A stretch of DNA of 64,000 nucleotides from Pirellulales bacterium (GCA_050247075.1 JBFWUW010000037.1:1-64000), one strand, 5' to 3'. Numbered from the stretch's first letter, positions 6,775 to 29,388 are shown. Translations and numbers: made by a program. Notes: generated by a model from the sequence alone, not told the origin.

Positions 6775-6980
6775 GGGCCACGTGCCAAGGGTGAAAAACG
6801 AGAGCTATCGCCGCACTTGCATCGTACGGCGGTGCCGGCGTACGTCAACGGCGGCTTGTAGTTTGCGGTAGGGGGGATGAGAATGGAGGAAGGAGTTTCG
6901 ATTTTGGATTTTTGATTTGCGATTGGCTGTCGATATTGGTCGGTTGATACTTTTCCCTTATTTCGCCTGATTGTTCGCCC
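6775..6980. promoter_or_regulatory. divergent promoter region between putA and the PSCyt/PSD gene, AT-rich with reiterated GATTT motifs
   Basis: The sequence ggattttggatttttgatttgcgattggctgtcgatattggtcggttgat is unusually AT-rich for this genome and lies between two divergently transcribed genes. Confidence 0.3.
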
Positions 6981-9900
6981 ATGCTTTCATTGAGACAGTA
7001 CGCTGTTGTTGGTTGGTTGATATTCCTGGTAGCGGGGAGGGTAGGCGCTGCCGAGCCGGCGAGTGAGTCGACGGAAGCGTTCGAACGGCTGGGGAAGCAG
7101 TACGATAGCGATGTTCGTCCGCTGCTCAAGCAGTTCTGCTTGGATTGCCACTCCAGCGATAAGCCCGAGGGGGAGTTGGATCTGGAAAGGTTTGCCACGC
7201 TGGCCGATGTTCGCACCGACACCAAGGTTTGGCTCAAAGCGGCCGAAATGTTAGACAACGGCGAAATGCCACCTAAGGGTTCCGCACAGCCATTGTCGCA
7301 ACAACGCCAGTCGTTGCGAAATTGGATCGCCGAGTACCTGGACGCCGAGGCCTTGGCCAGCGCCGGCGACCCGGGCCCCGTCGTGTTGCGGCGGCTGAAC
7401 AATGCCGAGTACACCTACACCGTCCGCGATTTGACCGCGGCCGAACTCTCGCCTGCCCGTGAGTTTCCCAGCGACAGCGCGGCGGGCGAAGGCTTCACCA
7501 ACACCGGCAGCGCCTTGGTCATGTCGCCAGCGCTATTGACCAAATATCTGGATGCCGGCAAGGATATCGCCAGCCATGCCGTGCTGTTGCCCGATGGCTT
7601 CCGTTTTTCCCATTCGGCCAACCGCAACGACTGGATCAACGATATTCTGGCCCAGATTCGGCAACTGTACTTTGAACAGACCGACTCCGCTGGCGGCACG
7701 CGGGTGAATCTGCAAGGGATCGTTTTTGACACCAACGGTGGCGGACGGTTGCCGGTGGCGGCTTATCTGCAAGCCACCTTGGCCGAACGTGATGCGCTGG
7801 CCGCTGGAAGCAAAACAACTGGGGATGTTGCCAAGGAACGCGGACTCAGCCCCAAATACCTGGCGGCGTTGTGGGGGATGCTCAACGAAAAGGAGGGTTC
7901 GCTGCTGTTGGACCGTGTGCGGCAACGCTGGAAGTTGGCCCGGCCGGAAGATGCCGAAGCACTGGCCGCTGAGATTGCCGTTTGGCAAAACGCCCTGACG
8001 CGGTTTCAGAGTGTAGGGCACATGAAGCCCTGGATGACACCCGCCGCGCCGCTAACGGCCCAGCAAGAGATTCGCTACAAGCTGCCGGCGGACGCCGCTG
8101 GCGATGTCGTTTTTTATCTGACAGCCCTTGAGGCAGGCGACGGTGCGGTGGGGGATGCGGCCTTGTGGCAACGCCCGCGGTTGGTGGCACCGGGCCGGCC
8201 CGATCTTTTGTTGCGCGACGTGCGGCGCTTTACCCGCCTGATGGCGTCGCGTCGCGGCCAGTTGTTTGCCGCCACCGCCAATTGCCTGAAGGCGGCGGCT
8301 GAAGCCAGCCTGGGCGACGCGGAAATCGACATCGCCGAATTGGCCCGGCGGCACAACACCGACGCCAGCTCGCTGCAATCGTGGCTCGATTTCCTCGGCA
8401 TCGGCCCCACGGCCACGCAAAAGCTCGACTTGTTTCAAGGCAAAATCGTCAACGCGTCGGGCTACGATTTCATCCGCGGCTGGGGATCGCACGATACGCC
8501 GCTGCTGTTGGCGAACTCCTCGGACCAACATGTGCGCGTCCCCGGCAACATGAAACCGCACGGAGTGACGGTCCACCCGTCGCCAACGTTGCAGGCCGCC
8601 GTGGGCTGGCGCAGCCCCGTATCCGCCCGGCTGCGGGTGGAAGGCAAGGTTTCGCATGCTCATCCCGAATGCGGCAACGGCATTGTCTGGTCGTTGGAAC
8701 TGCGGCGGGGTGCCGTCCGGCAACGATTGGCCAACGGTACGGCTGGCGGCAATCGGGATGCAGCCATTGGGCCAATCGAGTCGTTGGCGGTACGGCCGGG
8801 GGACCTGGTTTCGCTGCTGGTCGGTCCCCGCGATGGCAACCATGCGTGCGATTTGACGGATCTGGAGCTAACGCTCAAGAGCGACAAGCCCGACGGGCCG
8901 GCTTGGAGCCTGACGAGTGATGTCTCGCCCGACGTACAGGCCGGCAACCCGCACGCCGACCGATTGGGCAACAAGGATGTCTGGCACTTCTATACCGAGC
9001 CCGTTTCGGCAGCGTCCGCGGGGCCCGACATCCCCGCCGGATCGCTGCTGGCCCGCTGGCAGTTGGCGGATAAGGCAGACGAAAAGGCCAGCCTGGCGAA
9101 GGAACTACAAGCGTTGCTCTCCGGCCCGCCCCCCGCCGATGCCAATCATCCAGACGCGGCTCTATATCAACAGCTTGCCTCGCTAGGGGGCCCGCTGTTC
9201 GCGGCGGAATGGCAATCGTTGTTGAACAAGCCGGAGGATGCGGGAAATGATGGCCAATCGCCAGCATCCGAACCGGCGACCGACGAAGAAACCGCCGCGC
9301 CGCTGCCGGGCCTGGATCCGGCATTGTTCGGCAAGCTGCCGGACGGCAGGAGAATCGACGATGCCGATCTATGCTTTGCCGCCCCGGCATCGATGGAAAT
9401 TCGCCTGCCTGCCGACCTGGCGGCGGGGGCCGAGTTTGTCGCCGTGGGAACATTGGTGCAAACAAGCGAGAAACAGGGCAGCATTCAACTGCAAGCCGCG
9501 GGCGACAAGCCCGATGATTTGACTGCGCTGCGGCCCGACCTGCCGATTGTCGTCCGCGATGGCAGCGCAGCGCGGCAACGGTTTGAGAAAGCTTGCGACG
9601 ATTTCCGAAGTTGGTTTCCCGCCGCATTGTGCTACACCAAGATCGTGCCGGTCGATGAGGTCGTGACGCTGACGTTGTTTCATCGCGAGGATGAAGAGCT
9701 ATCGCGGCTGCTGCTGGACGACGAACAGCATGCCCGGCTGGACCGACTGTGGCAAGAACTGCACTTTATCAGTGGCGATGCCCTGACCTTGGTCGATGCC
9801 TTCGCCCAACTGCTGGAGTATGCCTCACAAGATAGCGACCCCAAACTGTTCGAACCCTTCCGCCAGCCGATCATGGACCGCGCCGCGGCTTTCCGCCAAA

Positions 9901-12770: not shown

Positions 12771-14855
12771 CTATTCCTCGCCACTCTCGTCGCCTTCGTC
12801 CCCGTTGTTTTCGTCCTCTTCGTCTTCCTGGGCACTTTCACCTGCTTCTTCGTCGGAGTCCTCGCCACCGTCGCGGCGTTCGGCCAGTTTTGCCCGCAGC
12901 GATTCCAACTCTTCCCGTAGTTCGTTGCGTTCGTCGGACAGCCGTTCGGCCTGTTCCGACAATTCGTTGACGCGCTCCTCCAACCGCTCGGTTCGTTCGG
13001 TCACGCGCTGGTCGAGCTCCTCCAACATTTCGTGCCAGCGGTTTTCCAATTCTCGCCAACCGCGGCGCAGCTCGCGTTCCGACTGCCGTCGTTCGCGTTC
13101 GATGGCGCGCTCCTCGCGGGCGCGTTCTTTTTCCTCCAGGTGCGAGGCCAACTCATCGAGTTCCGCCTGCAATTCATCCCGCTTACGGGCCAATTCGTCG
13201 ATGGCTTCACTCTCCTCGCGATCGTCCGCTTCCTCTTCCTCGTCGGACTCTTCGTCCATCTCCTCTTCGTCCCCTTCATCGTCGTCGGATTCATCTTCCA
13301 TTGACTCGTCGTCCTCATCGTCCGAGTCCTCATCGTCCGAGTCATCGTCGTCCGAGTCATCGTCGTCAGTCTCTTCCTCGTCGTCTTCCTCGTCGCGGTC
13401 GCCGGGATAAGCAAAGTTGGCCAATCCCAGGTTCGCATTCTCTCGCTCCGGTCCCGCCGATAACCCCCAAGCGCCGGTCAACATGATCAGCGCCAAGCCG
13501 GCCAACGTGGCCGCTCCCAAGCGCCATTGCAGACCGACGTGCCGTTCCAACACCTGTTCTCGTTCCAGCAACATGGTCATTCTCCTGTAGAATTCCGTCG
13601 AAGTCCGAAACACACCTGACACACTCAATCCCGCCTGGGCAAACCTTCCGCGGCCGACAATCAACGACACCAGCTCGCGGGCATACGTCTCTTTGTCCGA
13701 CTGGCCCGCCGCCCAGTCGTCGGCCAAAAGTTCTCGGCAAAGGCGTGCCCGGCCCCGCAACAGCCAATACAAGGGGTTCCAAAACAGCAGCGGCAGCGCG
13801 ATGTTAAACAGCGCCTGGCCCCAGGCGTCGCGCTGGCGAATATGCCCCAGTTCATGCCGCAGCACATGGGCCAATTGCGAGCGCCGCTCAACCAGGCAGC
13901 AACTTCGCGGCAGCACAATTGTCGGCCGCCACAAGCCAAATGTCACCGGACGCGGACAATGGCCGGAAACCAACAACCGGGGCCGTGCTCCCTCCCCGCA
14001 CAATTCGTACAGCAACCGCTCCAGCCAGCGCGGCGGCGTGGCGGCACGGTGTATCATGCGCCACAAAATGCATTGGCCGAATGCCAGCCAGGCCAGACAC
14101 AGTCCGGTGCCCATTGCCAGTAACATGGGAAGTTGCAACAACAAGGCATGCGGTCTCTTCACGGGAATTTCATGCTTGATCTGTTCGGCCGGAATCACGT
14201 CATGCTGGCTTGAAGGCTCGGCCAATGGCTCAACGGGCGGCGCTATGCTTTTCGCCGGTCGGGGATGAACGAAGGGGCTGGCCGCCGAACGCAACGACGG
14301 TTTGTTTTTAGGAGACCTGGTGCGGATAACCGTCGACTTCGTTCGCGCCGCGGGACGTTTATCGCCAGCCGAGGCAACCTTGCGTTCGGATCGTAGCCGC
14401 GCATGGCCCGCGCGGGCCTGTCCTTGGGAGACGCGAACTTGTCGCTGCGGCAACTTCTTGACGAGCCGCACGGTGACGTTATCCGCGCCTCGTGTTTTCG
14501 GTGCCGCGGTACCGCGGGCCACCGTTCGCGAATGTGCAACTGGCACTTCTAGAGAAGTCGGCGCGGTGGGTTCGAACTCCAACATCGTTTCGGGCATGGC
14601 ACTCTCATGTAATTCCCCAACAGTGAAATCTAAATGTTGGCTGCGAGAGGCCGCCGGCAAGTATTGCCGCCACGGCCGCGACAGGGGGAGGCAAGCCAAG
14701 GCCAGCCAGGCCAGCGATAGGCCCACCGTCAATTCCGCGCAGCGCAGTTGCCGAATTGGGCTGGAACACAGCAGCAAGCATGCTGTTCCCGCCAGTAACG
14801 CAGCGGTCGTCCCCAACGCCAGCATGGCGGCATGTTCGGCAAGGAAGGCAATCAT
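12771..14855 (-). CDS. BlaR1/MecR1-type M56 family membrane metalloprotease (sensor-transducer-like) with basic loop insertion and poly-acidic coiled-coil C-terminal tail
   Basis: HEXXH motif in the BlaR1-like context VLRHELGHIRQRDAW and four predicted TM segments. A ~150 aa K/R-rich insertion sits between TMs. The C-terminal ~250 aa are D/E-rich (DEEDDEEETDDDDSDDDDSDDEDSDDEDDE...) with heptad-like ELxxELxxL segments. The gene overlaps the blaI-like stop by 4 nt. Confidence 0.8.
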   Translation of the reverse strand: MIAFLAEHAAMLALGTTAALLAGTACLLLCSSPIRQLRCAELTVGLSLAWLALACLPLSRPWRQYLPAASRSQHLDFTVGELHESAMPETMLEFEPTAPTSLEVPVAHSRTVARGTAAPKTRGADNVTVRLVKKLPQRQVRVSQGQARAGHARLRSERKVASAGDKRPAARTKSTVIRTRSPKNKPSLRSAASPFVHPRPAKSIAPPVEPLAEPSSQHDVIPAEQIKHEIPVKRPHALLLQLPMLLAMGTGLCLAWLAFGQCILWRMIHRAATPPRWLERLLYELCGEGARPRLLVSGHCPRPVTFGLWRPTIVLPRSCCLVERRSQLAHVLRHELGHIRQRDAWGQALFNIALPLLFWNPLYWLLRGRARLCRELLADDWAAGQSDKETYARELVSLIVGRGRFAQAGLSVSGVFRTSTEFYRRMTMLLEREQVLERHVGLQWRLGAATLAGLALIMLTGAWGLSAGPERENANLGLANFAYPGDRDEEDDEEETDDDDSDDDDSDDEDSDDEDDESMEDESDDDEGDEEEMDEESDEEEEADDREESEAIDELARKRDELQAELDELASHLEEKERAREERAIERERRQSERELRRGWRELENRWHEMLEELDQRVTERTERLEERVNELSEQAERLSDERNELREELESLRAKLAERRDGGEDSDEEAGESAQEDEEDENNGDEGDESGEE

Positions 14856-15283
14856 GGCCGGCGCCCCCCGGCGCCTGGTCCCGTCTTGCGTCGGACCTTC
14901 GACAACAGCTCATCGAGCTTGCGTAGTTCCTCCACCGTCGGTTGCCGCAACGACAAGGCACTCTGCACCAATTGGTCCATCGCGCCGTCAAACAGCCGTT
15001 CCATCAGGCCCGACACCATCTGCTGACTGGTGTCGCTACGGGGCTGGGTCGGCCGATAAATAAACGACCGCCCCTCCGTGCGATGCGTAACCAGCCCTTT
15101 TTCCTCCATCGTCCGCAGAAACGCCTGTACCGTGTTTTGCACAATCGCAGCCTGGTCCCGCAAATCCTCGTACACCTCGCGAACCGTGGCTTCGCCCCGG
15201 TCCCACAAGACCTTGAGGATTTCCAGTTCGCGATCGGTCGGTTCCGTTTGAGCCATGCTCTCCTCCTGAAATTCCCGCTCCAT
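14852..15283 (-). CDS. BlaI/MecI/CopY family transcriptional repressor
   Basis: 143 aa. Winged-helix N-terminus ELEILKVLWDRGEATVREVYEDL is typical of the penicillinase repressor family. The gene is translationally coupled (ATGA overlap) to the M56 gene. Confidence 0.85.
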   Translation of the reverse strand: MEREFQEESMAQTEPTDRELEILKVLWDRGEATVREVYEDLRDQAAIVQNTVQAFLRTMEEKGLVTHRTEGRSFIYRPTQPRSDTSQQMVSGLMERLFDGAMDQLVQSALSLRQPTVEELRKLDELLSKVRRKTGPGAGGRRP

Positions 15284-15443: not shown

Positions 15444-16958
15444 CTATGGCTGGATTTCGCGAATGGAAACCTCGGCCGTGCCGGTGTTATCGGCCAACGC
15501 CGCGGGTGAATCGTTGATGCGCAGGTAGAGCGTGCCGTCATGGGTCGGCAACAACGTGCTGAAAAGGCCCACGTTATCGTATTGCAACAGGGCGCTGGTA
15601 ACGTTCGGATCAACTTCGTCCGGACGGACGGCGGCTTGCAATATGCCCAACGGCGAACCGCGAAAATAATGGATCGACACGCCCCCTGGCTCGCTCCACC
15701 AGGCCTGGGGCTGTTGTTTTAATTGATACCGCCCGCTGGCCTCCACGCGGTAAGCCTTGTTCCGTTCCAGATGAATGCCCGTACTTTGCCAACCGGCATC
15801 GGCCGCTACTCTGACCGTTGCCCCCTTGGCGGGCAGCGGTTGGCCGGCCTCAAACCGCACCGCCATCCGCTCAAAGTCGTAGCCATAGTCAATATTGGCG
15901 ACGAACACCTGCCATTCCTCCAGCAATTCGCCCCATTCGTCGCCGTAGGCTTCTTGCAGCAATTGGTTGAAATTGGACTGGCGGGCCTGGTGGAACATCT
16001 GGCGAAAGCGGTCGCGATAACGCGGGTGCCCGTCCAAAAACGCTCCGGCCCCCCACGACCACCCGTACGACTCGTTGACCAGATGTGCCCGCGGCCCCAG
16101 CGCCAGCACCTTGGGAAACGTCAGCCCTTGCCGCGCGGCGTAGGCGTCTTTGACCAGCTTGACCCGCCCCCACAGCGGTAATTCCTCGCGCGACTTGGGA
16201 AAATACCCGGTGGTCAATTGTCCGTCGGCCCATAAATGCGTGCCAAAATATTCGGCCATCCCTTCGTTGTACCAAGGCGGGGCCACGTCGCTGACGTGGG
16301 CAAACATGAAAGCGTGCGTCCCCTCGTGCAGCATTAAATGCCGCCGATAATAGGCATTGGGCTGCTCCAGCATCCAAAACTCACGGCCCCGCGTATAACC
16401 GGAGGGAAATTCGGGCAAGTCGTCGTCCCACAGCCCGCACAGCCAAAACCGCTGTTTATCCGCCGCCAGAAAGGCGGTCGCCCGCCAACCGCTGTCTTCG
16501 GTGATCTCAAAATACTTTTGCCATTGGGGGACAGCCGCATCGAACACGGCTGGCAATTCGTCCACATCGGGACCGGCAGGCAGATCAGTGAAGAGCGTTA
16601 AATACTGGCCCTTCAATTCGCGGATGCCTTGTTCGCTCAGCCGCTCCTTGTCGATGGGCCGCGTGGCAACCTGCGGCACGGGGGGCTTGATATTCCGCGA
16701 GGAGGCGTTCGGCCCGGCTCTGTCTGGGCCGTTTCCAATGGCATCAGCCAGCGGAGAATCGGGATCGACCAACGGCTTATCGACCCTTGGCTGGCGCGGG
16801 CGGACAGGCTTCTTGGGACGCGGTGCCGCTGTATCCCCACTCGCTGGGCCAACCGCGGACGGCTGGGGAGCGACCGTGGCGGGAGGCGCGGCATCCCCAC
16901 AACCGGCCACGATCACCACCACCCAGGCAGCCAGGCACGAAAGCCCCTTGGGCATCAT
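15444..16958 (-). CDS. lipoprotein with HExxH motif (putative zinc metallopeptidase-like, DUF1570-like)
   Basis: The internal start gives MMPKGLSCLAAWVVVIVAGCGD (lipobox VAGC). The motif MLHEGTHAFMF is an HExxH variant. Secreted and about 500 aa, immediately upstream of blaI on the same strand. Confidence 0.55.
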   Translation of the reverse strand: MMPKGLSCLAAWVVVIVAGCGDAAPPATVAPQPSAVGPASGDTAAPRPKKPVRPRQPRVDKPLVDPDSPLADAIGNGPDRAGPNASSRNIKPPVPQVATRPIDKERLSEQGIRELKGQYLTLFTDLPAGPDVDELPAVFDAAVPQWQKYFEITEDSGWRATAFLAADKQRFWLCGLWDDDLPEFPSGYTRGREFWMLEQPNAYYRRHLMLHEGTHAFMFAHVSDVAPPWYNEGMAEYFGTHLWADGQLTTGYFPKSREELPLWGRVKLVKDAYAARQGLTFPKVLALGPRAHLVNESYGWSWGAGAFLDGHPRYRDRFRQMFHQARQSNFNQLLQEAYGDEWGELLEEWQVFVANIDYGYDFERMAVRFEAGQPLPAKGATVRVAADAGWQSTGIHLERNKAYRVEASGRYQLKQQPQAWWSEPGGVSIHYFRGSPLGILQAAVRPDEVDPNVTSALLQYDNVGLFSTLLPTHDGTLYLRINDSPAALADNTGTAEVSIREIQP

Positions 16959-17230
16959 TGGTCGATCAAAAAAGAACTGCCGAGCCATAAGACCGCCGCA
17001 TCGACGAATGCACCCCAACCACCAGGCCGCATGATCCTTTTCATTCTAACCAGACCGATCTTTCCTTGGCGAGCATGGCGTTAGTTGCGGAAACCCAAAG
17101 CAAACCAAAGGAGCGGCATCAGGGTCGGGTTGCTCCAGAAAGGTCTGGCCCTGTTGACCACGTTGCGCAGGCGGCCAGAAAACGGACAGGACGAGTCGCG
17201 GCGAACGATTGCATTGGCTATCTTGTGGCC

Positions 17231-17809
17231 ATGAGAGAAGTTACGGAAATTCTAAATCGGCTCCAGGCGGGGGGTAATGCGGAAGCCCGCGAGCTATTTG
17301 AACTGATCTACGACGAATTGCGCAAGCTCGCGGCGGCCCGGATCGAGCGGGAACCGGCCGGACAAACCTTGCAAGCAACTGCCCTTGTGCATGAGGCTTA
17401 CTTGCGGCTGGTCGATCAAGAGATTCCGCAATCTTGGGATTCTCGCGGGCATTTTTTCGCGGCTGCCGCCGAGGCGATGCGGAGAATCCTGGTCGAAAGC
17501 GCCCGCCGGCGAAAGAGCCTGAAACGAGGCGGCCACCTGACTCCGCGCGAATACAACGATTCACAAATCGCCGCTCCAGAAGAAGCGGGTGATGTAGAAG
17601 CCCTGCATGAGGCGCTGAATGAATTCGGCCAGGTTGATCCTCGCGCCTGCGAGTTGGTCAAGCTGCGCTGTTTTGCTGGCATGACGTTGGAACAGGCTGC
17701 CGAAGTGCTGGGCATTTCGCGCAGAACAGCCGCCCGCTTGTGGACTTATGCCCGCGCCTGGCTTCACCAGCGCCTGGGGCTTGGCTTGGGGCAAGAAGAC
17801 TTACCGTGA
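17231..17809 (+). CDS. ECF-type RNA polymerase sigma factor (TIGR02999/Sig70_X6-like, kinase-associated group)
   Basis: MREVTEILNRLQAGGNAEARELFELIYDELRKLAAARI... matches the ECF family that in Planctomycetes and Verrucomicrobia sits next to Ser/Thr kinases. The sigma-4 region AGMTLEQAAEVLGISRRTAARLW is present. ATG 17231 is preferred over the track start 17066, giving 192 aa. Confidence 0.85.
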   Translation: MREVTEILNRLQAGGNAEARELFELIYDELRKLAAARIEREPAGQTLQATALVHEAYLRLVDQEIPQSWDSRGHFFAAAAEAMRRILVESARRRKSLKRGGHLTPREYNDSQIAAPEEAGDVEALHEALNEFGQVDPRACELVKLRCFAGMTLEQAAEVLGISRRTAARLWTYARAWLHQRLGLGLGQEDLP

Positions 17810-17902
17810 AAAACCCAAAAAAAGTTTGGCACGCTTCAGCGTGAGATTTCGCATTGATGGATGGAAAAGGCGATTAAGACATGAAATACAGGAACCGCTC
17901 TG

Positions 17903-20900
17903 ATGAACGAACGGAGCATATTTTGGGCCGCTCTCGAATGTAAAACGCCACAAGCCCTGTCCGCGTACCTGGATGAGGCATGCGGCGGTAATCAGGAGTT
18001 GCGCGGTCGAGTGGAGTCGTTGATTCAGGCCCATGTCGCCGGCAGCGGACCGGTTGACGCCCTGGCGGGGGGCGATGATCCGCGGGATTCCTCTTGGGGC
18101 GCTGGGCCGGCACCGCTGAAAAGAAATCAAATGGAAGAAAAGCTTGATTTGTCGTTCTTGGATCCCAGTTCCCAAACTGGCAGCATCGGAACTCTTGGTA
18201 ACTACGAGATACTCGAAGTAATTGGCCACGGCGGCATGGGAGTCGTGCTCAAGGCGCAAGACACCAGGCTGCAGCGAATCGTCGCCATCAAGGTCTTATC
18301 GCCCAAGATTGCCGCCAACGTCGCGGCGAAACGGCGCTTCGAGCGGGAGGCTCAAGCCGCCGCCGCTGTGAGCCACGATCACATCGTCACCATCCATGCC
18401 GTGCAAGAACACCACGACTTGCCGTATATCGTGATGGAATGCGTCGTCGGCCGCTCGCTGCAGACCAAGATTGAAGAGACGGGCCCGTTAGAACTAAAGG
18501 AAATCCTGCGCATCGGCAGCCAGATCGCCTTGGGGCTGGCGGCGGCGCACAAACAAGGGTTGGTTCATCGCGATATCAAGCCCAGCAACATTTTGCTGCA
18601 GAATGGCATTCAGCGGGTCAAGATTGTCGACTTTGGACTGGCGCGCGCCGCGGACGATATCAGCATTACCCAGCCAGGACAGATCGCTGGCACGCCGTTG
18701 TACATGTCCCCCGAACAAGCGGAGGGAAAAACCGTTGACCATCGGAGCGACCTGTTTAGCTTGGGGAGCGTGCTCTACACCATGTGCGCGGGAAGGCCGG
18801 CGTTTCGGGCGGATAGCACCGTGGCGGTGCTTCGCCGTGTGTGCGATGACACGCCCCGTCCCATTCGCGAAATCAACCCCGAGTTGCCAGATTGGCTCGG
18901 GCAGATCGTTGGCAAGTTGCTCTTCAAAGCCAAGCAGGACCGTTATCAAACGGCCGCCGAATTGGCGGACCAATTGAGCTTGCACTTGGCCCGACTTCAA
19001 GAGCCGCGATCCGATTCGCATCTTGACCCAACCATAGCCCAACAAGCTCATCCCCTGGCCTCTCAATCCGGCGGCCTGGCACCGGTTTCGTCACGCCGGC
19101 GCGCGCGGTGGGCCGGCATGGGAGTAGCGCTGGGATTAGTCCTCGGAATGATTCCGCTTGCCTGGTGGTGGGGGTTGTTTGCCGTCCGTGACCCTTCGCC
19201 CGAGGGAATGTTCCATCCGGAGGCTTTAGCGCCACCATCTAGCGAGAGGCCATTGGCCGCGGCCGATAACGACCCGCGGGAAATCGTGCCTTCGGACGAT
19301 GCTCCTCCCGACAGCCCTTTATCCGAAAACCAAGATTGGCCCGGCTGGCCAGCGGATGCTCCCGCTCCGGCGATTTCCCCGTTCACCAGGGAACAGGCGC
19401 AGCGTTACCAGGAAGAGTGGGCGGCCTACCTGCAAGTGCCGGTCGAATGGGAGAATTCCATTGGCATGAAATTCCGCCTGATCCCGCCAGGAGAATTCCT
19501 GATGGGCCTGTCCGAGGCCGATGTAGCTTCGGTCGTTGCCAACAAGAGAAATGAAAACGAATGGGAAGCACAATATCCTGGCGCCATGCCTCGGCACCGC
19601 GTGCGCGTGTCGCAGCCCTACTACCTGGGTACGTTCGAAGTCGCCCAGGGGCAATTCAACCAGGTTGCCGGCGTCAACCCGTCGTTTTACTCCGCGGCGG
19701 GAGAAGGCAAGCAACAGGTTGCCAAAGAGGATACATCAACGTTTCCGGTCGATTCGGTGTCGTTCATCAAGGCCGCGGAGTTCTGCGGCAAGCTTAGCCA
19801 ACTCGAAGGACGAGAGCGCGCCTACTTCACCGGTGGCGCGACAGTCACGGTCTTGTCGGGCGGCGGTTATCGTATTCCCACCGAGGCCGAATGGGAATTT
19901 GCCTGTCGGGCCGGCACAACCTCTGGCTGGTCCGCCGCCGAACTAGAAAGCCAGTTGCCCAAGGCGGCCTGGTTCGCTGCAAACTCCGCCGGCCAAACAC
20001 ACCCGGCGGGCCAATTGCAGGCTAATCCCTTCGGACTGTACGACATGCACGGAAATGTCTCGGAATGGTGCCAAGACGTTTACAACGGGCGAACTTATCT
20101 CAATCGCCAATCGGGCATCACGACCGACCCTGTTGGCCCAGATGTCGGCAACCAGCGCGTGCTGCGCGGCGGCAGTTGGTATAGCCACTCTGGCCTGAGC
20201 CTGGCGGCCTTTCGATTGGTGCGAGATTCCACCATCCATCATCCCGACTGCGGCTTTCGGGTGGCTATCAGTGCCCAAGAGGTCCAGCAGTCGCCGATCT
20301 CCGTGGCGCCGCGGGTGGGCCTTAATCCGCAATCCATTCCAGAACACGAGCGGCTGCCGTGGCACCCTAGCGAACTCTTGGGGGTGATCGGCGCCCAACA
20401 GCGAGCCCATTGGGGCAGCGTGTCTTCCGTGGCGTTGTCGCCGGACAGCAAGCAGTTTTTGAGTTGCGGCGCGGATGGCTGCTGGTTGGAGACAGATGCC
20501 AGCCAGCCAGCCGAATGCATCACATTCGCCGAAAACCCACCCTCCTTCGCGTTGTATCACGAAGCGTTGGGCTTCCTCAGCGTCCATCGCGACGGACAGG
20601 TTCTGCGCTGGTTCACGGAACAGCCTTCGCGGCACGAAACGCTCTGGCGGGTGCCCGCCAACACCCGCGTATTGAGAATGTCTGGCGACGCCAAGACGTT
20701 AGCCGCTTGGGTGTTGCCAGAGACCGGCGGACAAACTTCCTTCGAGGGAGTGGGTGACACCGTTGTCATGGATCTGGCGGACAACGTGCCGCGAGAACGC
20801 TTCCGCGTCAGGGGGACGCGCCGACCGGCAATGACGCCCCAGAGAGACATGCTATTCGTCTATGACGAGGCGGCCAAAGAGTTACAGGTTTTCGATCTGC

Positions 20901-22294
20901 GCGAGCCAGAAGTGGTGCCCGCCAGCCGCATTAAGCCAAGTGCGCCAATCTGGCAGATGGAGTGCAAGGCAGAAGATCAACTCGTCACCCTGAACACCAA
21001 CAATATTTTGGAGTTGTGGTCGGTGGAGGCGCACGCGTTGACACTTCTCGATTCGACCGACCCAGCCTTCTCCTTCGCGGGTTGCTTGGAAATCGCGGTC
21101 TCTGGTGATGGGCGACGCGTCGCCGCGCCCCACAAGGCTGGAGCGCGTGTGGTCGATATCGTCGATCGGCGGTTTGTGCCGTACCTGAAGGGAAATTTGG
21201 ATGCCCACTACTTTTTGTCCAATTATGAAAGAGCAGCACTTTCCCAAGACGGGTCTACCTTGTTGATCGGACCCAGTGCAGCGCCAGTTCGCCGCTGGAC
21301 GTTGGAGGCTAGCCAGGCCAAGGAGGCCGAATTTCAGGGCTATACCGTGGGAACGCCGAACCTGGTAACCTCGGGAGACGGTTCTCGAGTCGCCTCCCAT
21401 AATAACTGGGGCAGCATTCGCATTTGGGGCTTGGACCAATCGCAGCCCGATTACCGGAAAAACCCGGAATGGAATCATGCGGGTGTGTTGGCCTTCAGCG
21501 ATGACGGTCTGGCCGCTTGCGTCTCGGCTGGCCATCCTGAGTTATCGCTCTTTCGCGATTCTGGTGGAACCTGGGTAACGGCCAGGCTCTTGGATCAAAA
21601 CGGCCAGGCGGCCAGCTTTTCCGGGCAGGGCCAGTTGGCGGTCGCCGCCGCGACCGGCGAAATAATACTCTACGATGTAACCAGCCGCCAACCCGACGAA
21701 ATCGCGCGTTCACCCAGTTTGGGTTCGGAGATCGCCTTTCGCCAGATTGCATTTCAGCGGCCGGAAGGCCGGCTCGTCGCCATCACCTCGCCGCCGCAAG
21801 CCGCGCGAGAATTGGTATTGCGCGTCTTTGAGATAGACGGAACGACAATCCGTGAGGCCTATTCCAAAAAGATGTCCGACGTAACCGCGGTTCTCGGCCG
21901 ATTCGGCACGCACGCGGCCGTCTCCTATCGCGATGGTTTGGTCGAGATCTTTAAGGTAGGGCCGGCCAGCCTGACCAAAGCCAAAGAGATAAGGCTTGGC
22001 GCCAATCCTGTCGCTGTCGACTTGTCGCCGACCGGTTCTCACCTGTTGGCCGTTGGTCCTCCGAGCGAGGTAGGTGTCTTTCGGTGCGAGGATGCTCTCC
22101 GTACCACCCACTGGGAGTTTCCTGGCGCGGTCTGGAACGCCGCATTTCTCGGCGATAGCGGCTGCATCGTGACGGCCAATTCCAATCGAACCGCGCTAGT
22201 GCTTCGATATGAAATGGGTGAAAGCGGAGTTCACGGGAACGCCCAACTTAGGAAGCCCCCGACGGCCGTTCCAGCGGTTACCCCTTCGCCGTGA
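17903..22294 (+). CDS. Ser/Thr protein kinase with transmembrane segment, extracytoplasmic FGE-sulfatase (SUMF1-like) domain and C-terminal beta-propeller (WD40-like) region
   Basis: Kinase motifs HRDIKPSNILL, DFGLAR and GTPLYMSPE. TM helix WAGMGVALGLVLGMIPLAWWWGLF. FGE-domain motifs RVRVSQPYYLGTFEVAQGQF and RVLRGGSWYS. About 650 aa of repetitive beta-strand-rich sequence follow. The conserved N-terminal box MNERSIFWAALECKTPQALSAYLDEACGGNQELRGRVESLIQAH is characteristic of ECF-associated kinases. Confidence 0.9.
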   Translation: MNERSIFWAALECKTPQALSAYLDEACGGNQELRGRVESLIQAHVAGSGPVDALAGGDDPRDSSWGAGPAPLKRNQMEEKLDLSFLDPSSQTGSIGTLGNYEILEVIGHGGMGVVLKAQDTRLQRIVAIKVLSPKIAANVAAKRRFEREAQAAAAVSHDHIVTIHAVQEHHDLPYIVMECVVGRSLQTKIEETGPLELKEILRIGSQIALGLAAAHKQGLVHRDIKPSNILLQNGIQRVKIVDFGLARAADDISITQPGQIAGTPLYMSPEQAEGKTVDHRSDLFSLGSVLYTMCAGRPAFRADSTVAVLRRVCDDTPRPIREINPELPDWLGQIVGKLLFKAKQDRYQTAAELADQLSLHLARLQEPRSDSHLDPTIAQQAHPLASQSGGLAPVSSRRRARWAGMGVALGLVLGMIPLAWWWGLFAVRDPSPEGMFHPEALAPPSSERPLAAADNDPREIVPSDDAPPDSPLSENQDWPGWPADAPAPAISPFTREQAQRYQEEWAAYLQVPVEWENSIGMKFRLIPPGEFLMGLSEADVASVVANKRNENEWEAQYPGAMPRHRVRVSQPYYLGTFEVAQGQFNQVAGVNPSFYSAAGEGKQQVAKEDTSTFPVDSVSFIKAAEFCGKLSQLEGRERAYFTGGATVTVLSGGGYRIPTEAEWEFACRAGTTSGWSAAELESQLPKAAWFAANSAGQTHPAGQLQANPFGLYDMHGNVSEWCQDVYNGRTYLNRQSGITTDPVGPDVGNQRVLRGGSWYSHSGLSLAAFRLVRDSTIHHPDCGFRVAISAQEVQQSPISVAPRVGLNPQSIPEHERLPWHPSELLGVIGAQQRAHWGSVSSVALSPDSKQFLSCGADGCWLETDASQPAECITFAENPPSFALYHEALGFLSVHRDGQVLRWFTEQPSRHETLWRVPANTRVLRMSGDAKTLAAWVLPETGGQTSFEGVGDTVVMDLADNVPRERFRVRGTRRPAMTPQRDMLFVYDEAAKELQVFDLREPEVVPASRIKPSAPIWQMECKAEDQLVTLNTNNILELWSVEAHALTLLDSTDPAFSFAGCLEIAVSGDGRRVAAPHKAGARVVDIVDRRFVPYLKGNLDAHYFLSNYERAALSQDGSTLLIGPSAAPVRRWTLEASQAKEAEFQGYTVGTPNLVTSGDGSRVASHNNWGSIRIWGLDQSQPDYRKNPEWNHAGVLAFSDDGLAACVSAGHPELSLFRDSGGTWVTARLLDQNGQAASFSGQGQLAVAAATGEIILYDVTSRQPDEIARSPSLGSEIAFRQIAFQRPEGRLVAITSPPQAARELVLRVFEIDGTTIREAYSKKMSDVTAVLGRFGTHAAVSYRDGLVEIFKVGPASLTKAKEIRLGANPVAVDLSPTGSHLLAVGPPSEVGVFRCEDALRTTHWEFPGAVWNAAFLGDSGCIVTANSNRTALVLRYEMGESGVHGNAQLRKPPTAVPAVTPSP

Positions 22295-25337: not shown

Positions 25338-26849
25338 TCATTCCGGGATGGGGGCTGACCGGCGAATGGTGGTCGCCCCTTCCCACACCGCTTCATCGGT
25401 GGCGGGGTCATACGTCAGCACGCGATGGGCGCTGCCGGCGGCGGGAGCCTCGTCGATGGTCGGCAGCCAGCGGCGATGATCGGCGATGATACGCTCGTAG
25501 GCGGCATCGTCGGCCAGATTGGTCCATTCGCGCGGGTCGGATTGCAAGTCGTACAATTCTTGGCTGCCGTCGGCGTAGTGGATATACCGCCAGCGCTGGC
25601 TGCGAACCGCATGGTTGCCACGGTTGTGCGAGGTAATGGCCGGCTTTTCGCGCGGCGCGTCGGCCTGTTGCAGTTGCGGCAGCAGGCTCTGCCCTTCCAG
25701 CCCATCGCTCGGCGGCAGATGGCTCAGTTCGACCAGCGTGGGATAAATATCGAGCAGTTCGGCGGGCTGCGTGCAGCGTCCGCCGGCTGCCACGCCCGGT
25801 CCGGCAAAGATCAATGGCACGCGGGTGGAGCGTTCCCACAGCGTGTTCTTGCCGGTAATGGCCTTCTCACCGAGGTGCCAGCCGTGGTCGCCCCACACCA
25901 CGACAATGGTGTTGTCGGCCAGTCCAGCCTGGTCGAGCGCCTCTATCAGGCGGCCGACTTGCGCATCAACAAAACTGGTGCAAGCCAGGTACGAGCGAAC
26001 GAGATTGCGCCATTGGCCGTTGTCACGAACCCACTTCAGCCGCGGTTCTGGCAGATTCCAATGCAAGTACCAGGAAAAACGGGGCGTGTCTTGGCGGTCG
26101 TTGTCCTGGATCGCTGGCAGCAGCGTATCATCATCGGGATAAAGATCGAACCATTTTTGAGTGGCATAGCACGGCACATGTGGCAGAAAAAAGCCAGCAG
26201 CCAGAAAAAACGGCTGGTCGCGCGGGGCAGCCGCAATTTGCTCGGCCGCCCAGGTGGCTACCTGGTAGTCGCCTTTGTCCTGGTCGCGGTGTGGAAAAAC
26301 GCCCCAGTCCATCAGCGGATGATTGCCCATCGGCGTGGGCGGAATGAGCTTGTCCGGCGGTTTGGCGCCAATGCCGCCGAACGGTCCCCATCCGTCAAAC
26401 TCGCTGGCTCGCTGAGCAGGGCCGCCGGCATCTCCATGATAAATCTTGCCGGTCGTTAGAGTCCGGTAGCCGTGCGCTTGGAAGTATTGTGGCAAAGTCA
26501 CCCGGTCGCTCCATCTGTCGAGCGTGCGAAACCAGGGGGCCAGGCCATAGATGCCAGTGGTGGTGGGGCGCAGTCCAAGCATCAGGCTGGTCCGCGAAGG
26601 GTTGCACAACGGGGCTTGGCAGTGGGCATTAAGAAACACCGTGCCGCCCTCGGCCAGCCGATCGAGGTGGGGCGTTTTGGCTAATGGGTGGCCGCCCAAC
26701 GCCCCGACCCAATCGTTCTGGTCGTCAATGGCAATGAACAAGATATTGGGCGGGCGCGGCGGTTCGGCGGAAATTGCCGTGGCATGAGAGTAGCACGCCA
26801 GCAGAACCAGAGAGGCCACCAGCCGTCGGCATCGAAGCAGATTACGCAC
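25338..26849 (-). CDS. sulfatase (arylsulfatase family, formylglycine-dependent)
   Basis: Signal peptide and the sulfatase signature CQAPLCNPSRTSLMLG (C-x-P-x-R FGE target), then GDHGWHLGE. 503 aa. Confidence 0.9.
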   Translation of the reverse strand: MRNLLRCRRLVASLVLLACYSHATAISAEPPRPPNILFIAIDDQNDWVGALGGHPLAKTPHLDRLAEGGTVFLNAHCQAPLCNPSRTSLMLGLRPTTTGIYGLAPWFRTLDRWSDRVTLPQYFQAHGYRTLTTGKIYHGDAGGPAQRASEFDGWGPFGGIGAKPPDKLIPPTPMGNHPLMDWGVFPHRDQDKGDYQVATWAAEQIAAAPRDQPFFLAAGFFLPHVPCYATQKWFDLYPDDDTLLPAIQDNDRQDTPRFSWYLHWNLPEPRLKWVRDNGQWRNLVRSYLACTSFVDAQVGRLIEALDQAGLADNTIVVVWGDHGWHLGEKAITGKNTLWERSTRVPLIFAGPGVAAGGRCTQPAELLDIYPTLVELSHLPPSDGLEGQSLLPQLQQADAPREKPAITSHNRGNHAVRSQRWRYIHYADGSQELYDLQSDPREWTNLADDAAYERIIADHRRWLPTIDEAPAAGSAHRVLTYDPATDEAVWEGATTIRRSAPIPE

Positions 26850-26906: not shown

Positions 26907-28088
26907 TTACAAGCGCTCCGGCACGTATTCGTGGTCGCGCTTGCGAAGGACCGTGGCGGAGATGACACGGTCAGGCTCCGTGGTTTTGCGGGTTTCGTCA
27001 TCCATCCGTTTCAGCTTGGCCAGCACATCCAGCCCGTCGATAATACGGCCAAACACGGTATGCTTGCCATTCAAGCCAAGCGCCGGTCGAAAACTCAGAA
27101 AGAACTGAGAGCCGCCGGTGTCCTTGCCGGCATGGGCCATGCTGATGCTGCCGCGAAAATGCTCGCGATGGTCCTCGCGGCCGCATTCACACGCGATTTT
27201 GTAGCCAGGACCGCCGGTGCTGTTGCCGAGTGGATCGCCACCTTGCGCGACGAACGATGATTCCACGCGAAAGAACGTCGTATCGTTGTAGTATTTGTCC
27301 TCCACCAGACGGACAAAGTTGGCCACGGTGTTGGGGGCCTGGTCCTCAAAGAGTTCCAGTGTCATGTCTCCCTGGGTCGTGTGGAGCAAGACTCGCGGAA
27401 GATCGCCCGCCTCGGCATCGGCCGCGCGGAACTCTAGTTCGCGCTGCCAGGCCTTGGTCACGGCGGCGGCTTGGCTCAAATCGCGCAACGCGGCTTCGCC
27501 CAAAACACTTTGCTCGGCGGGCAACTTCATCGTCTCGGCATCGCGCTTCAGTTTTTCGGCCGCCAGCTTGAGGTATTTTTCAGCCCGTTCTCCGTCGGCC
27601 AATGCAAAGGCAACCCGCCCCGCCAGCTCGTAGATTCCCTCGTCGAGCGGCTCGCGCGTCTCCAACGGTTCCAGCAGTTCCTGGGCAAGCTCGTAGTCGT
27701 CCTTGAAGGCGGCGGCAGCGGCCGAGAACATCATGAACTTGTCGAGATCATCCCGCCGACTGGCGCCATTGTGACTAAGGGCCTTGGCCGCCTCGGTCAT
27801 CTGAACGACCATTTCGTCGCCGGCGGCCAGTTTTTCATCGTACTCGCGCCGCAGCCCGTCCCGAGCAGACTCTGACGCCGTCAAGAAGGCCAACTGCAGT
27901 TGGTGCAGTTCGAGAACAAGGGACTTCCATTCGGCATACAGACGGTCGAACCGGGCCTCTTGCGCCGCGGCGGACAAACTTGCCGCGGGATCGGCTGCCT
28001 TAACCGTCAAGCCGCCCCATGCGGCGGCCAATAGCAGGCAGCCAGCCAGGGGGCACCATATCCACCGCGACTTTGTTGGTCTATGCAT
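26907..28088 (-). CDS. secreted cyclophilin-type peptidyl-prolyl cis-trans isomerase with N-terminal helical (TPR/coiled-coil-like) domain
   Basis: C-terminal cyclophilin motifs FFRVESSFVAQGGDPLGNSTGGPGYKI and SMAHAGKDTGGSQFFLSF. Signal peptide present. Confidence 0.85.
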   Translation of the reverse strand: MHRPTKSRWIWCPLAGCLLLAAAWGGLTVKAADPAASLSAAAQEARFDRLYAEWKSLVLELHQLQLAFLTASESARDGLRREYDEKLAAGDEMVVQMTEAAKALSHNGASRRDDLDKFMMFSAAAAAFKDDYELAQELLEPLETREPLDEGIYELAGRVAFALADGERAEKYLKLAAEKLKRDAETMKLPAEQSVLGEAALRDLSQAAAVTKAWQRELEFRAADAEAGDLPRVLLHTTQGDMTLELFEDQAPNTVANFVRLVEDKYYNDTTFFRVESSFVAQGGDPLGNSTGGPGYKIACECGREDHREHFRGSISMAHAGKDTGGSQFFLSFRPALGLNGKHTVFGRIIDGLDVLAKLKRMDDETRKTTEPDRVISATVLRKRDHEYVPERL

Positions 28089-28155: not shown

Positions 28156-29388
28156 TCACTCCGGCTTCTCTGCGGCTCCCTCGTCGGCAACCTTTTTCGG
28201 CACGTATTTGTGGTCGCGCTTGCGAAGCACGGTAGCCGTTTCGATGACGTCAGGCTTGGGGCCGCCAGGGAATTGAGGATTAACGCGTTGCAAGTCCTTG
28301 AGGACTTCCATGCCCTGAATAACGCGGCCAAAAGCCGTGTGCTTGCCGTCGAGGTGGCCGGTGGGGCGGAAGGTCAAGAAGAACTGCGATCCGCCGGTGT
28401 CCTTGCCGGCATGGGCCATGCTCAAGGTGCCGCGGAAGTGCTTGCGATAGTCGTCCCGGTAGCATTCACACGCAATGTGATAACCGGGGCCTCCCGTGCC
28501 GTTGCCTTCAGGGTCTCCCCCTTGAGCCATGAAGCCGGGCAGAACACGATGGAACGGCAACCCGTCGTAGAACTTCTTTTCGACGAGGTTGATAAAGTTC
28601 GCCACGCTGTTGGGTGCCTGGTTTTCAAACAGCTCGATGGTGATATCGCCCTTGCTGGTAGCCAGTTTGACGCGAGGCAGGTCATCGGCTTTGGCCTCGG
28701 CCGCTCGGATATCTTGCTCTTTTGCCCATTCCTCGCGAAACTCGGGCAGCAGGGCCAGCGTGACCTTGCCGTCTTCCTCCAGTGCCTTGAGTTCCTTGGC
28801 TTGCTTCAACTCCGATTCAGCCAGGTCCAAGTCTTCCATATTGAAAGCCGCGGCACCAATCGCCTGGTGGATCGCGGGATTCTCAAAGCCTCCCTTCACC
28901 AGCAATTGCCCCAAACGGACAGCCTCTTCGTAATCGTCCCCTTCGATCGACCGGCCAATCCTCTCCGCCAAGAACTGCTCCGCCTTTTTGTTAGCCTTGG
29001 GATCTTTGAGGTACAGCTTTTCGATCTCTGGCTGCAAGTCAACCAACAAGGCAGCCCGTTCATTGATCGCCGCGGCCAGCCCTTGGTACTTCTGGACAAT
29101 CGCCGGCCGGTCAGCCTCCTTGGCCTTGCGGAACTCGCCTTCTAGCTTGCCGATCTCGCCCGCGATCTCCAGGGCCTCGTCGTAGATTTTCTCAAAGTCG
29201 GCGATCGAAGGAGGCACCACCTCGCCCTTTGGCTTTGCAGCGGCCGGTTTGGCCGGGGCGGGTTTCTTGGCGGGCTGCTGCTCGCCTTCAGCGGCGTGGG
29301 CGGACACAAACGGGCTGAAACCAACGACATAGCACAAGCCACACGTCAAAGTAAATTTTCGAACGGCGGTCAACATAATTGCACCCAA
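28156..29388 (-). CDS. secreted cyclophilin-type PPIase paralog with Lys/Ala-rich N-terminal region
   Basis: FHRVLPGFMAQGGDPEGNGTGGPGYHI and SMAHAGKDTGGSQFFLTF. Tandem paralog of 26907..28088. Confidence 0.85.
   Translation of the reverse strand: MGAIMLTAVRKFTLTCGLCYVVGFSPFVSAHAAEGEQQPAKKPAPAKPAAAKPKGEVVPPSIADFEKIYDEALEIAGEIGKLEGEFRKAKEADRPAIVQKYQGLAAAINERAALLVDLQPEIEKLYLKDPKANKKAEQFLAERIGRSIEGDDYEEAVRLGQLLVKGGFENPAIHQAIGAAAFNMEDLDLAESELKQAKELKALEEDGKVTLALLPEFREEWAKEQDIRAAEAKADDLPRVKLATSKGDITIELFENQAPNSVANFINLVEKKFYDGLPFHRVLPGFMAQGGDPEGNGTGGPGYHIACECYRDDYRKHFRGTLSMAHAGKDTGGSQFFLTFRPTGHLDGKHTAFGRVIQGMEVLKDLQRVNPQFPGGPKPDVIETATVLRKRDHKYVPKKVADEGAAEKPE

Follow-up and report, generated by a model that had tools for sequence, protein, structure and literature searches.

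Two signalling pairs of Gammaproteobacteria, EcfP/PknT of Vibrio parahaemolyticus and EcfK/PknS of Xanthomonas citri, couple an extracytoplasmic function (ECF) sigma factor to a Hanks-type Ser/Thr kinase encoded by the adjacent gene, and no anti-sigma factor is involved. In sigma factors of the ECF43 group, the acidic DAED/DxxD patch that makes contact with the beta' clamp of RNA polymerase is missing and an uncharged motif stands in its place (QTTA in the ECF43 consensus, STTA in EcfP, QATE in EcfK), the Thr of which is phosphorylated by the adjacent Hanks kinase, so that negative charge is restored and the sigma factor becomes active (PMC13147305, PMC8999054, PMC8103513). The characterised relatives are intrinsically inactive and are switched on by this Thr phosphorylation, not freed from sequestration (PMC8999054, PMC13147305). 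The known output of the X. citri pair is a type VI secretion system, that of the V. parahaemolyticus pair resistance to polymyxin. Here we describe a pair of the same general design at positions 17231-22294 of a 64,000-nt stretch of DNA (the window; JBFWUW010000037.1:1-64000, G+C ca. 60% throughout) from a Pirellulales metagenome-assembled genome (MAG), i.e., from the phylum Planctomycetota.

The pair consists of two co-directional open reading frames (ORFs) on the plus strand, 93 nt apart. It is a further member of a known planctomycete pair, an ECF43-like sigma factor with a receptor kinase, and as an addition of one such pair it changes little for that finding as stated. We consider it probable, at roughly three chances in four, that the two genes form an ECF43-type transmembrane signalling module in which the kinase activates the sigma factor by phosphorylation. 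The features on which this reading draws are the following.

17231..17809, plus strand: ECF sigma factor gene (192 aa; TIGR02999 / PF07638, ECF43-like, kinase-associated)
17378..17380, plus strand: codon of Thr50 in the sigma2.2 motif Q48-A-T50-A, the predicted phospho-acceptor in place of the acidic DAED
17827..17856, plus strand: bipartite promoter-like motif, i.e., TGGCAC (17827-17832), a 17-nt spacer and CGCATTG (17850-17856)
17903-22294, plus strand: Hanks kinase gene (1463 aa)
17903..18037, plus strand: box at the kinase N-terminus (aa 1-45), composed of three helices, with a proposed role in sigma docking or recognition
18203..18997, plus strand: Hanks-type Ser/Thr kinase domain (aa 101-365; Pkinase match aa 101-350, E 1e-47)
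19103..19186, plus strand: single transmembrane helix (aa 401-428; sole Kyte-Doolittle peak >1.4 in the protein)
19337..20266, plus strand: one formylglycine-generating enzyme (FGE)-fold, C-type-lectin-like module outside the membrane (aa 479-788; PF03781 E 7e-37, Pfam aa 526-788)
20183..20200, plus strand: degenerate FGE active-site loop with S761 and S766, Ser at both catalytic Cys positions
20315..22222, plus strand: predicted divergent double WD40-type beta-propeller (ca. aa 805-1440; AlphaFold2 and Foldseek)

In the scheme that we favour, the sigma factor would be made in an inactive state, its acidic RNA-polymerase-gripping patch being replaced by Q-A-T-A, and its partner would act as a single-pass receptor kinase with the kinase domain in the cytoplasm and the sensor outside. 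The sensor would comprise one non-catalytic FGE-fold binding module near the membrane and a distal double WD40 propeller, and the binding of a ligand outside the cytoplasm would activate the kinase. The activated kinase may recognise its own sigma factor via the three-helix N-terminal box and phosphorylate Thr50, possibly also Ser/Thr residues of the sigma2-sigma4 linker such as T104 or S111, and the added negative charge would enable the sigma factor to bind core RNA polymerase and to transcribe its targets. One likely target is the kinase gene itself, via TGGCAC-N17-CGCATTG, i.e., a positive feedback.

The sigma factor and its partner kinase

The sigma factor matches TIGR02999 with 200 bits (cut-off 126) and PF07638 (Sigma70_ECF) with E 8e-58 over profile positions 1-183 of 185; because these family models match end to end, the ATG at 17231 is preferred over an upstream TTG at 17066 as the start codon. 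It belongs to a very large family, with at least 8000 homologues at E<1e-10, and most among the matches listed are 55-76% identical to it. Conservation of the sigma2.2 region was counted over 90 aligned homologues, in which the segment reads GQTLQATALVHEAY. The motif QATA occupies here the site of the acidic DAED motif of other ECF sigma factors, with uncharged residues and a conserved Thr: T50 and A51 are invariant, Q48 is present in 86/90 and A49 in 88/90. EcfP and EcfK share this trait with the window protein, having an uncharged Q/S-x-T-A with a conserved Thr where other ECF sigma factors have DAED. By analogy we infer that Thr50 is the phospho-acceptor, the motif-equivalent of T51 in EcfK and of the phospho-Thr in EcfP. 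T104 and S111 lie in the sigma linker, the region where EcfK has extra functional phosphosites. No solved sigma factor that could anchor the sigma2.2 alignment was found in the PDB at E<=0.01. Taken together, the protein fits an ECF43-type sigma factor, an assignment made by defining features and not by phylogeny, namely family membership, an adjacent kinase, the uncharged motif and the lack of an anti-sigma factor in the neighbourhood.

Homologous loci were collected by scanning one genome per species, which gave 80 loci, and five more were added via the closest sigma homologues. Of the 82 homologous sigma genes that leave room for a further gene behind them, 74 are directly followed by a kinase gene, at a median distance of ca. 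110 nt. The cytoplasmic part of these partner kinases is conserved and what follows it varies: among 48 partner kinases, TPR repeats come after the kinase domain in 27, WD40 repeats in 13 and FGE domains in a few, and the partners of the three closest sigma homologues looked up (70-73% identity) carry FGE+DUF1080, LamG or FGE+LRR. This variety indicates that the sensor part is freely shuffled on a conserved cytoplasmic core. On one related contig (L092:2317-10560) two sigma/FGE-kinase pairs occur in tandem; across their cytoplasmic parts, the first of the two kinases (P0114) and the window kinase share 69% identity.

The window kinase has the layout known from PknT and PknS, that is, a helical N-terminal extension, a flexible linker, the kinase domain, one transmembrane helix and a periplasmic sensor; the sensors differ, being TPR in PknS and an FGE fold plus a double propeller here. 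Its kinase domain aligns with PknB (E 2e-54) and all motifs are intact (GHGGMG, VAIK with K130, HRDIKPSN with D224 and N229, DFG with D243, and SPE), with K130, H222-R-D224, N229 and D243-F-G245 invariant in the alignment of relatives. Given that the protein has one hydrophobic segment with RRRAR on its N-terminal side, its topology is N-in and C-out, which leaves the kinase domain in the cytoplasm and everything after aa 428 on the other side of the membrane. A preliminary description of the locus had proposed a sigma factor of the kinase-associated ECF group and a 1463-aa partner with the order box, kinase, one transmembrane helix, FGE-like domain and propeller; the ORFs, the domain order and all structural details were borne out, and the group membership is backed by the TIGR02999 match, the adjoining Hanks kinase in 74 of 82 loci and QATA with its invariant Thr50. 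The same description suggested that in this lineage the kinase may replace the anti-sigma factor. Of this, the first half stands, in that no anti-sigma domain was found among the genes neighbouring the pair (in the window); the wording has to change, as the characterised systems speak for activation of an inactive sigma factor and not for its release from sequestration.

The extracytoplasmic sensor

FGE domains are reported to rank third in abundance among the accessory domains of Planctomycetota Ser/Thr kinases, after TPR and WD40 (PMC11032199). The combination seen here is thus less unusual than the preliminary description supposed, and the window kinase is best described as having an ectodomain that unites the second and the third commonest planctomycete ectodomain types. 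Single-pass Ser/Thr kinases of this phylum whose periplasmic domain is labelled 'sulfatase-modifying enzyme 1' have, like ours, a cytoplasmic Pkinase domain, one transmembrane helix and a periplasmic FGE domain (PMC11032199); the window protein differs from them in its single FGE followed by a divergent double propeller, a combination shared with only two other representative proteins as regards the propeller, and in having lost the usual C-R-S motif of the FGE domain (S-L-A, aa 766-768). More than 4600 database proteins match the ectodomain, most of them Pkinase+FGE proteins. The 119 best-scoring homologues have two to six tandem FGE modules and no propeller, in a ranking that favours multi-module proteins, and single-module FGE kinases do exist.

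The name of the domain invites the view that it is catalytically active, as a formylglycine-generating enzyme or an oxidase related to it, while anchored on the outside of the membrane, which would make the kinase bifunctional. The Pfam FGE-sulfatase match is significant, and the database names of homologues imply an enzyme ('bifunctional serine/threonine-protein kinase/formylglycine-generating enzyme family protein'); the exact window protein is itself present in NCBI, from a Pirellulales MAG, as 'SUMF1/EgtB/PvdO family nonheme iron enzyme'. The catalytic residues of FGE form a cysteine pair, CxxxxC, in the C-terminal loop (C336 and C341 in the human enzyme). When the loop GGSFLCHESYC of the Thermomonospora curvata FGE is aligned with the window protein, its counterpart is GGSWYSHSGLS, with Ser at both cysteine positions (S761 and S766). 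Bona fide FGEs (human SUMF1, 1y1e; T. curvata, 5nxl/6s07; Streptomyces coelicolor, 2q17) share the fold and the PF03781 family with our module; they match it with E values of only ca. 1e-11 to 1e-8, and the module differs from them also in that it belongs to a receptor and lies outside the membrane. The top PDB match of the module is TvpA (2y3c; E 6e-31), the variable protein of a diversity-generating retroelement (DGR) of Treponema denticola, which has the FGE-type C-type-lectin fold without FGE activity and is thought to bind ligands (PMC5758913).

The loss is not peculiar to the window protein. Over the 321 modules that 120 homologous proteins contain, the site of the first Cys mostly has S, N, D, Y or H and Cys is not among the six commonest residues listed, i.e., this position is not conserved as Cys in the family, whereas the second is Cys in 196/321 modules, within the C-R-S motif that has become S-L-A here. 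A conserved scaffold (R755-G-G, R771 and G784-F-R) frames hypervariable loop positions in these modules, much as a conserved RGGSW...GFR scaffold frames the variable C-terminal loop in TvpA and in the window module alike (PMC5758913), and the hypervariable C-terminal segment is the very segment that aligns with the C-terminus of TvpA. The start of the module is typical as well, as its leader WPGWPADAP...IGMKFxLIPPGEF matches the consensus leader of the 120 homologues. The module also has weaker similarity to PorK/GldK, PvdO and EgtB, non-FGE members of the fold, which is thus in wide use for purposes other than FGE chemistry. An active enzyme is thus highly improbable, and on the residues at its active-site positions the module is to be regarded as a non-catalytic binding module. 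The preliminary description had likewise expected a domain that does not act catalytically, and the Cys pair that it singled out for inspection proved to be lost. The 'FGE' label on such kinases, including the NCBI name for a bifunctional kinase/formylglycine-generating enzyme, should not be read as enzymatic or sulfatase-related.

TvpA is a stand-alone surface protein, whereas the window module is part of a kinase ectodomain. Fusions of FGE domains to kinase or WD40 domains are on record among DGR targets (PMC5758913), and DGR diversification of the FGE loop was considered for the window and rejected: there is no repeat of 20150-20300, no Avd-like ORF and no reverse-transcriptase-like YxDD ORF in it. 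As the window has neither a template repeat nor genes for Avd or a reverse transcriptase, the module is probably not diversified here, unless by a remote element elsewhere in the genome. A template-like copy outside the gene was not found in ten other FGE-kinase loci, a single locus (L090) being the one that has it. At this locus (L090:5325-7039; JGI 3300031991, Ga0318467_1001996), an ECF-linked FGE kinase (P0053) appears to be accompanied by a DGR cassette in decay. The kinase gene is followed there by an Avd-like gene (weak PF22296 match), and in the intergenic region after it (6899-7039) the 3'-terminal 141 nt of the two FGE modules recur a third time, in a copy that has many AAC codons and encodes ...HWNNTASNCRSSNR...; its mismatches to the two modules cluster at template adenines (12/25 and 17/25 A versus 20/116 and 18/116 non-A positions). 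Within 3 kb in L090 there is no reverse transcriptase.

A separate idea, which builds on the preliminary description, is that the module is a specific sensor for sulfated glycans, for sulfatase peptides not yet modified or for how far sulfatase maturation has proceeded, with the pair adjusting sulfatase-related genes. In its favour, the module has the fold of FGE, an enzyme that accommodates the CxPxR peptide of sulfatases in its groove, and a Cys-type sulfatase gene (CNPSR motif) lies 3 kb downstream of the pair (25338-26849). However, three unrelated genes lie between it and the pair, its strand is the opposite one, it has no copy of the promoter-like motif, and it is the only sulfatase gene in 64 kb, so that the 'genome rich in sulfatases' of that description is not shown by the window. 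The gene tables of nine homologous FGE-kinase loci contain no sulfatase. Moreover, the module is far closer to the non-enzymatic TvpA than to true FGEs, and a hypervariable binding-site loop argues for many ligands and not for one conserved peptide. We consider sulfatase sensing quite unlikely, the link resting on the domain name. In one relative of the window kinase (P0250, see below) the FGE module is replaced by DUF1080, a lectin/glucanase-like domain, which is compatible with glycan binding in general; such binding is possible, because the FGE and DUF1080 cassettes both have lectin-like folds, and nothing points to sulfate.

The remaining ca. 650 aa of the ectodomain have weak WD40/beta-propeller matches (aa 833-935 and 1111-1264), far below the curated Pfam cut-offs. 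The AlphaFold2 model of this region is all-beta, with 51 strands, and its best Foldseek matches are all double WD40 propellers (2ymu, Aip1 1nr0, PWP2; E 1e-25 to 1e-21), while HMMER links the region to 615 WD40-type proteins at E<1e-10. The modelled structure and these matches make a fold of the WD40-type propeller class very likely, in keeping with the propeller-like repeats first proposed. Close relatives are rare: among 1.84 billion representative proteins only two were found (HMMER; E 2e-109 and 1e-103), and the remaining matches are generic WD40 proteins at E 7e-27 or weaker. The closest, P0250, has the same N-terminal box, a kinase part 68% identical over aa 1-370 and a propeller 35% identical; it is encoded behind a PF07638 sigma factor gene and has DUF1080 (3-keto-disaccharide-hydrolase-like) exactly at the position of the FGE module. 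The other, P0249, shares the double propeller (37% identity) and has no domain at that position. Owing to the DUF1080-for-FGE swap in the one and the lack of any domain in the other, the FGE module can be seen as an exchangeable membrane-proximal cassette, i.e., a sensor part that is swappable on an otherwise conserved receptor.

The N-terminal box and the promoter-like element

The kinase begins with a box of three helices (aa 3-11, 16-27 and 31-45; predicted local distance difference test (pLDDT) 87-94 in the AlphaFold2 model), followed by a disordered linker (aa 48-78). The box has no relatives in Pfam, NCBIfam or PDB. Its conservation, claimed at the outset, is evident from its presence in 71/74 kinases encoded directly downstream of homologous sigma genes and in 26 of 96 FGE-carrying kinases, and these 96 fall into four N-terminus types, of which the window box is type 1. 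The context of the types is as follows, the counts for types 2-4 being small.

Type 1 N-terminus (window box): adjacent PF07638 sigma factor; 71/74 loci, P0114 and P0250
Type 2 N-terminus: no adjacent sigma factor; 2/2
Type 3 N-terminus (zf-HC2 anti-sigma zinc-finger): adjacent Sigma70_r2-type ECF sigma factor; 3/3
Type 4 N-terminus: adjacent longer PF07638 sigma factor; 2/2

These look-ups, type by type, show that the type of N-terminus follows the sigma partner and that the ectodomain does not. In type 3, the zinc-finger domain (P0249: 24 bits, E 4e-5) is at the same place in 6/6 proteins tested. Given that the N-terminus type follows the sigma factor and that the sister N-terminus is sigma-binding, we infer that the window box is a module recognising the cognate sigma factor. 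The extension of PknS is longer, with 81-83 aa and 3-4 predicted helices plus a flexible linker (45 aa and three helices, then a 30-aa linker, in the window kinase), its sequence shows no detectable homology to ours, and its role is stated as unknown (PMC13147305). Recognition of the cognate sigma factor by the box thus offers a testable answer to the question that PknS/EcfK raised about the conserved N-terminal extension.

The zf-HC2 kinases constitute a sister class in their own right (HxxxCxxC; P0249, P0033, P0053, P0019, P0088 and P0097; loci L087, L090 and L094), and the three for which the context was read are each encoded directly behind a Sigma70_r2-type ECF sigma gene. They are anti-sigma-domain/kinase fusions with the same FGE or propeller ectodomains, i.e., they (P0249, P0033 and P0053 among them) have the layout and the ectodomain repertoire of the window kinase and differ from it in the anti-sigma zinc-finger at their N-terminus and in a partner from another sigma family, neither of which goes with the window box. 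One may ask, then, whether the box is itself an anti-sigma domain that holds the sigma factor at the membrane until activation of the kinase releases it, phosphorylation not being the activating step. Two things speak for this: sister kinases that share the ectodomains and are encoded beside an ECF sigma factor have a true zf-HC2 domain in the position of the box, and box type follows sigma type. Against it, the box is only ca. 45 aa long and has no HxxxCxxC motif, and the sigma factor has no acidic RNA-polymerase-binding patch and an invariant Thr in its stead, which in EcfP leaves the protein inactive unless phosphorylated (PMC8999054). We regard release from the box as unlikely to be the activating step; docking and phosphorylation are compatible, so that the proposal would refine the phosphorylation reading more than compete with it.

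The gap between the two genes contains a bipartite element 53 nt before the kinase ATG. It belongs to a motif present in 63/70 gaps between sigma and box-kinase genes, TGG(C)(A/G)C, a 17-nt spacer and (A-T-T-T)CGCA(T/C)TG, which is preceded by phased A/T tracts and located mostly 45-60 nt before the kinase start codon (loci L001-L093); the spacer sequence is not conserved. A position weight matrix trained without the window gives the window site 29.4 bits, the next best site in the 64 kb 13.0 bits and shuffled sequences 10-18.6 bits. For kinases with one of the three other N-terminus types, which have another sigma partner or none, the DNA upstream scores below 6 bits, i.e., the motif is absent. 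The loci, 1 Mb in total, contain 31 further sites of at least 17 bits, as compared to 0-3 in shuffles, most of them behind sigma genes. The geometry of the element suggests an ECF-type promoter driving the kinase gene, and it is plausibly the sigma family's own target promoter, which would amount to positive feedback. As such, the motif offers a candidate for the promoter targeted by this very large sigma family, for which no regulon is known in Planctomycetes. Upstream of the sigma genes, the search for an ECF-type motif gave only a weak enrichment of housekeeping-like -10 words (TATAAT, TATACT, TACAAT), and a search for sigma-70 consensus promoters and intrinsic terminators around the window pair gave nothing beyond shuffle expectation. 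The sigma-kinase gap has no Rfam match and no unusual RNA fold (folding z-score 0.28).

Six of these 31 sites are located upstream of genes for exported proteins that have a leader with a basic stretch and LExLExR. In the related loci, 24 ORFs start in this way (e.g., RRLxLERLEDRxLLS), 21/24 of them on the strand of the sigma/kinase pair. The majority closely follow the kinase gene, and upstream of 6 the promoter-like motif is present. They were seen in L006, L008, L012, L013, L016-L018, L020, L031, L035, L041, L042, L045, L053, L062, L064, L069, L074 and L080, and their products include SBBP or DUF5122 beta-propeller and Calx-beta proteins. No ORF with such a leader was found in the window.

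Several points weigh against the module as we have outlined it. The local sigma motif is QATA and the ECF43 consensus QTTA, and ECF59, 61, 62 or 217 are alternative kinase-linked planctomycete groups. The box of the window kinase has Leu at position 19, where at least 90% of its relatives have Arg, and the box profile misses the N-terminal extension of the solved 364-residue kinase 9eed (presumably PknS 1-364), so that homology of the extensions is unproven. The promoter-like motif is nearly identical across many paralogous pairs, which is hard to square with a pair-specific output; it could be read by another factor, and as the window has a single copy, no target gene besides the kinase is identified there. 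Finally, confidence in the model of the propeller is low (pLDDT 60), as are the TM-scores of its matches (0.22-0.27).

A wider reading is a network of many sensors with a shared output, which we put forward tentatively and with the odds somewhat against it as a joint claim. Dozens of receptor kinases whose ectodomains are shuffled (TPR, WD40, FGE, DUF1080 or LamG) would each be box-matched to near-identical sigma factors that serve one promoter class, TGGCAC-N17-CGCAYTG, and in function the box would correspond to the anti-sigma zinc-finger of the sister kinases. The promoter would stand before the kinase gene, not before the sigma gene, and before the genes for exported proteins with the LExLExR leader. 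The window pair would be one node of such a network, with the kinase gene as a target of its own sigma factor.

Neighbouring genes and repeats in the window

The flanking genes of the pair encode BlaR1/BlaI, an unknown HExxH protein, an SPFH protein, PfkB, the sulfatase and cyclophilin. A second copy of the sigma factor, the kinase, the box, the FGE module or the propeller was not found in the window (phmmer).

The gene divergent from the sigma gene (15444-17018, minus strand) codes for 524 aa with a lipoprotein-like leader (VAGCGD) and a metalloprotease-like HEGTH (HExxH) motif. It matches no Pfam family, the sole hit being a faint one to flagellinolysin (E 0.004), and it is not conserved beside homologous sigma/kinase pairs. 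Further upstream (12771-15283, minus strand) are genes for a BlaI-type repressor and a BlaR1-type M56 sensor protease, the latter with a long and extremely acidic C-terminal tail made of D/E-run repeats (DNA repeat family D2, 12797-13402). A comparable BlaI/BlaR1 pair is situated near an unrelated FGE kinase in L086.

A direct-repeat array with a 12-nt period occupies 1653-2180, within a minus-strand coding region, and comprises 29 overlapping copies of a 120-nt unit with 60-76% identity. Downstream of the sulfatase gene, the stretches 26919-27254 and 28198-28533, 1279 nt apart, are 77-78% identical, which indicates that the two cyclophilin-type genes in which they lie (26907-28088 and 28156-29388, minus strand) are tandem paralogues.

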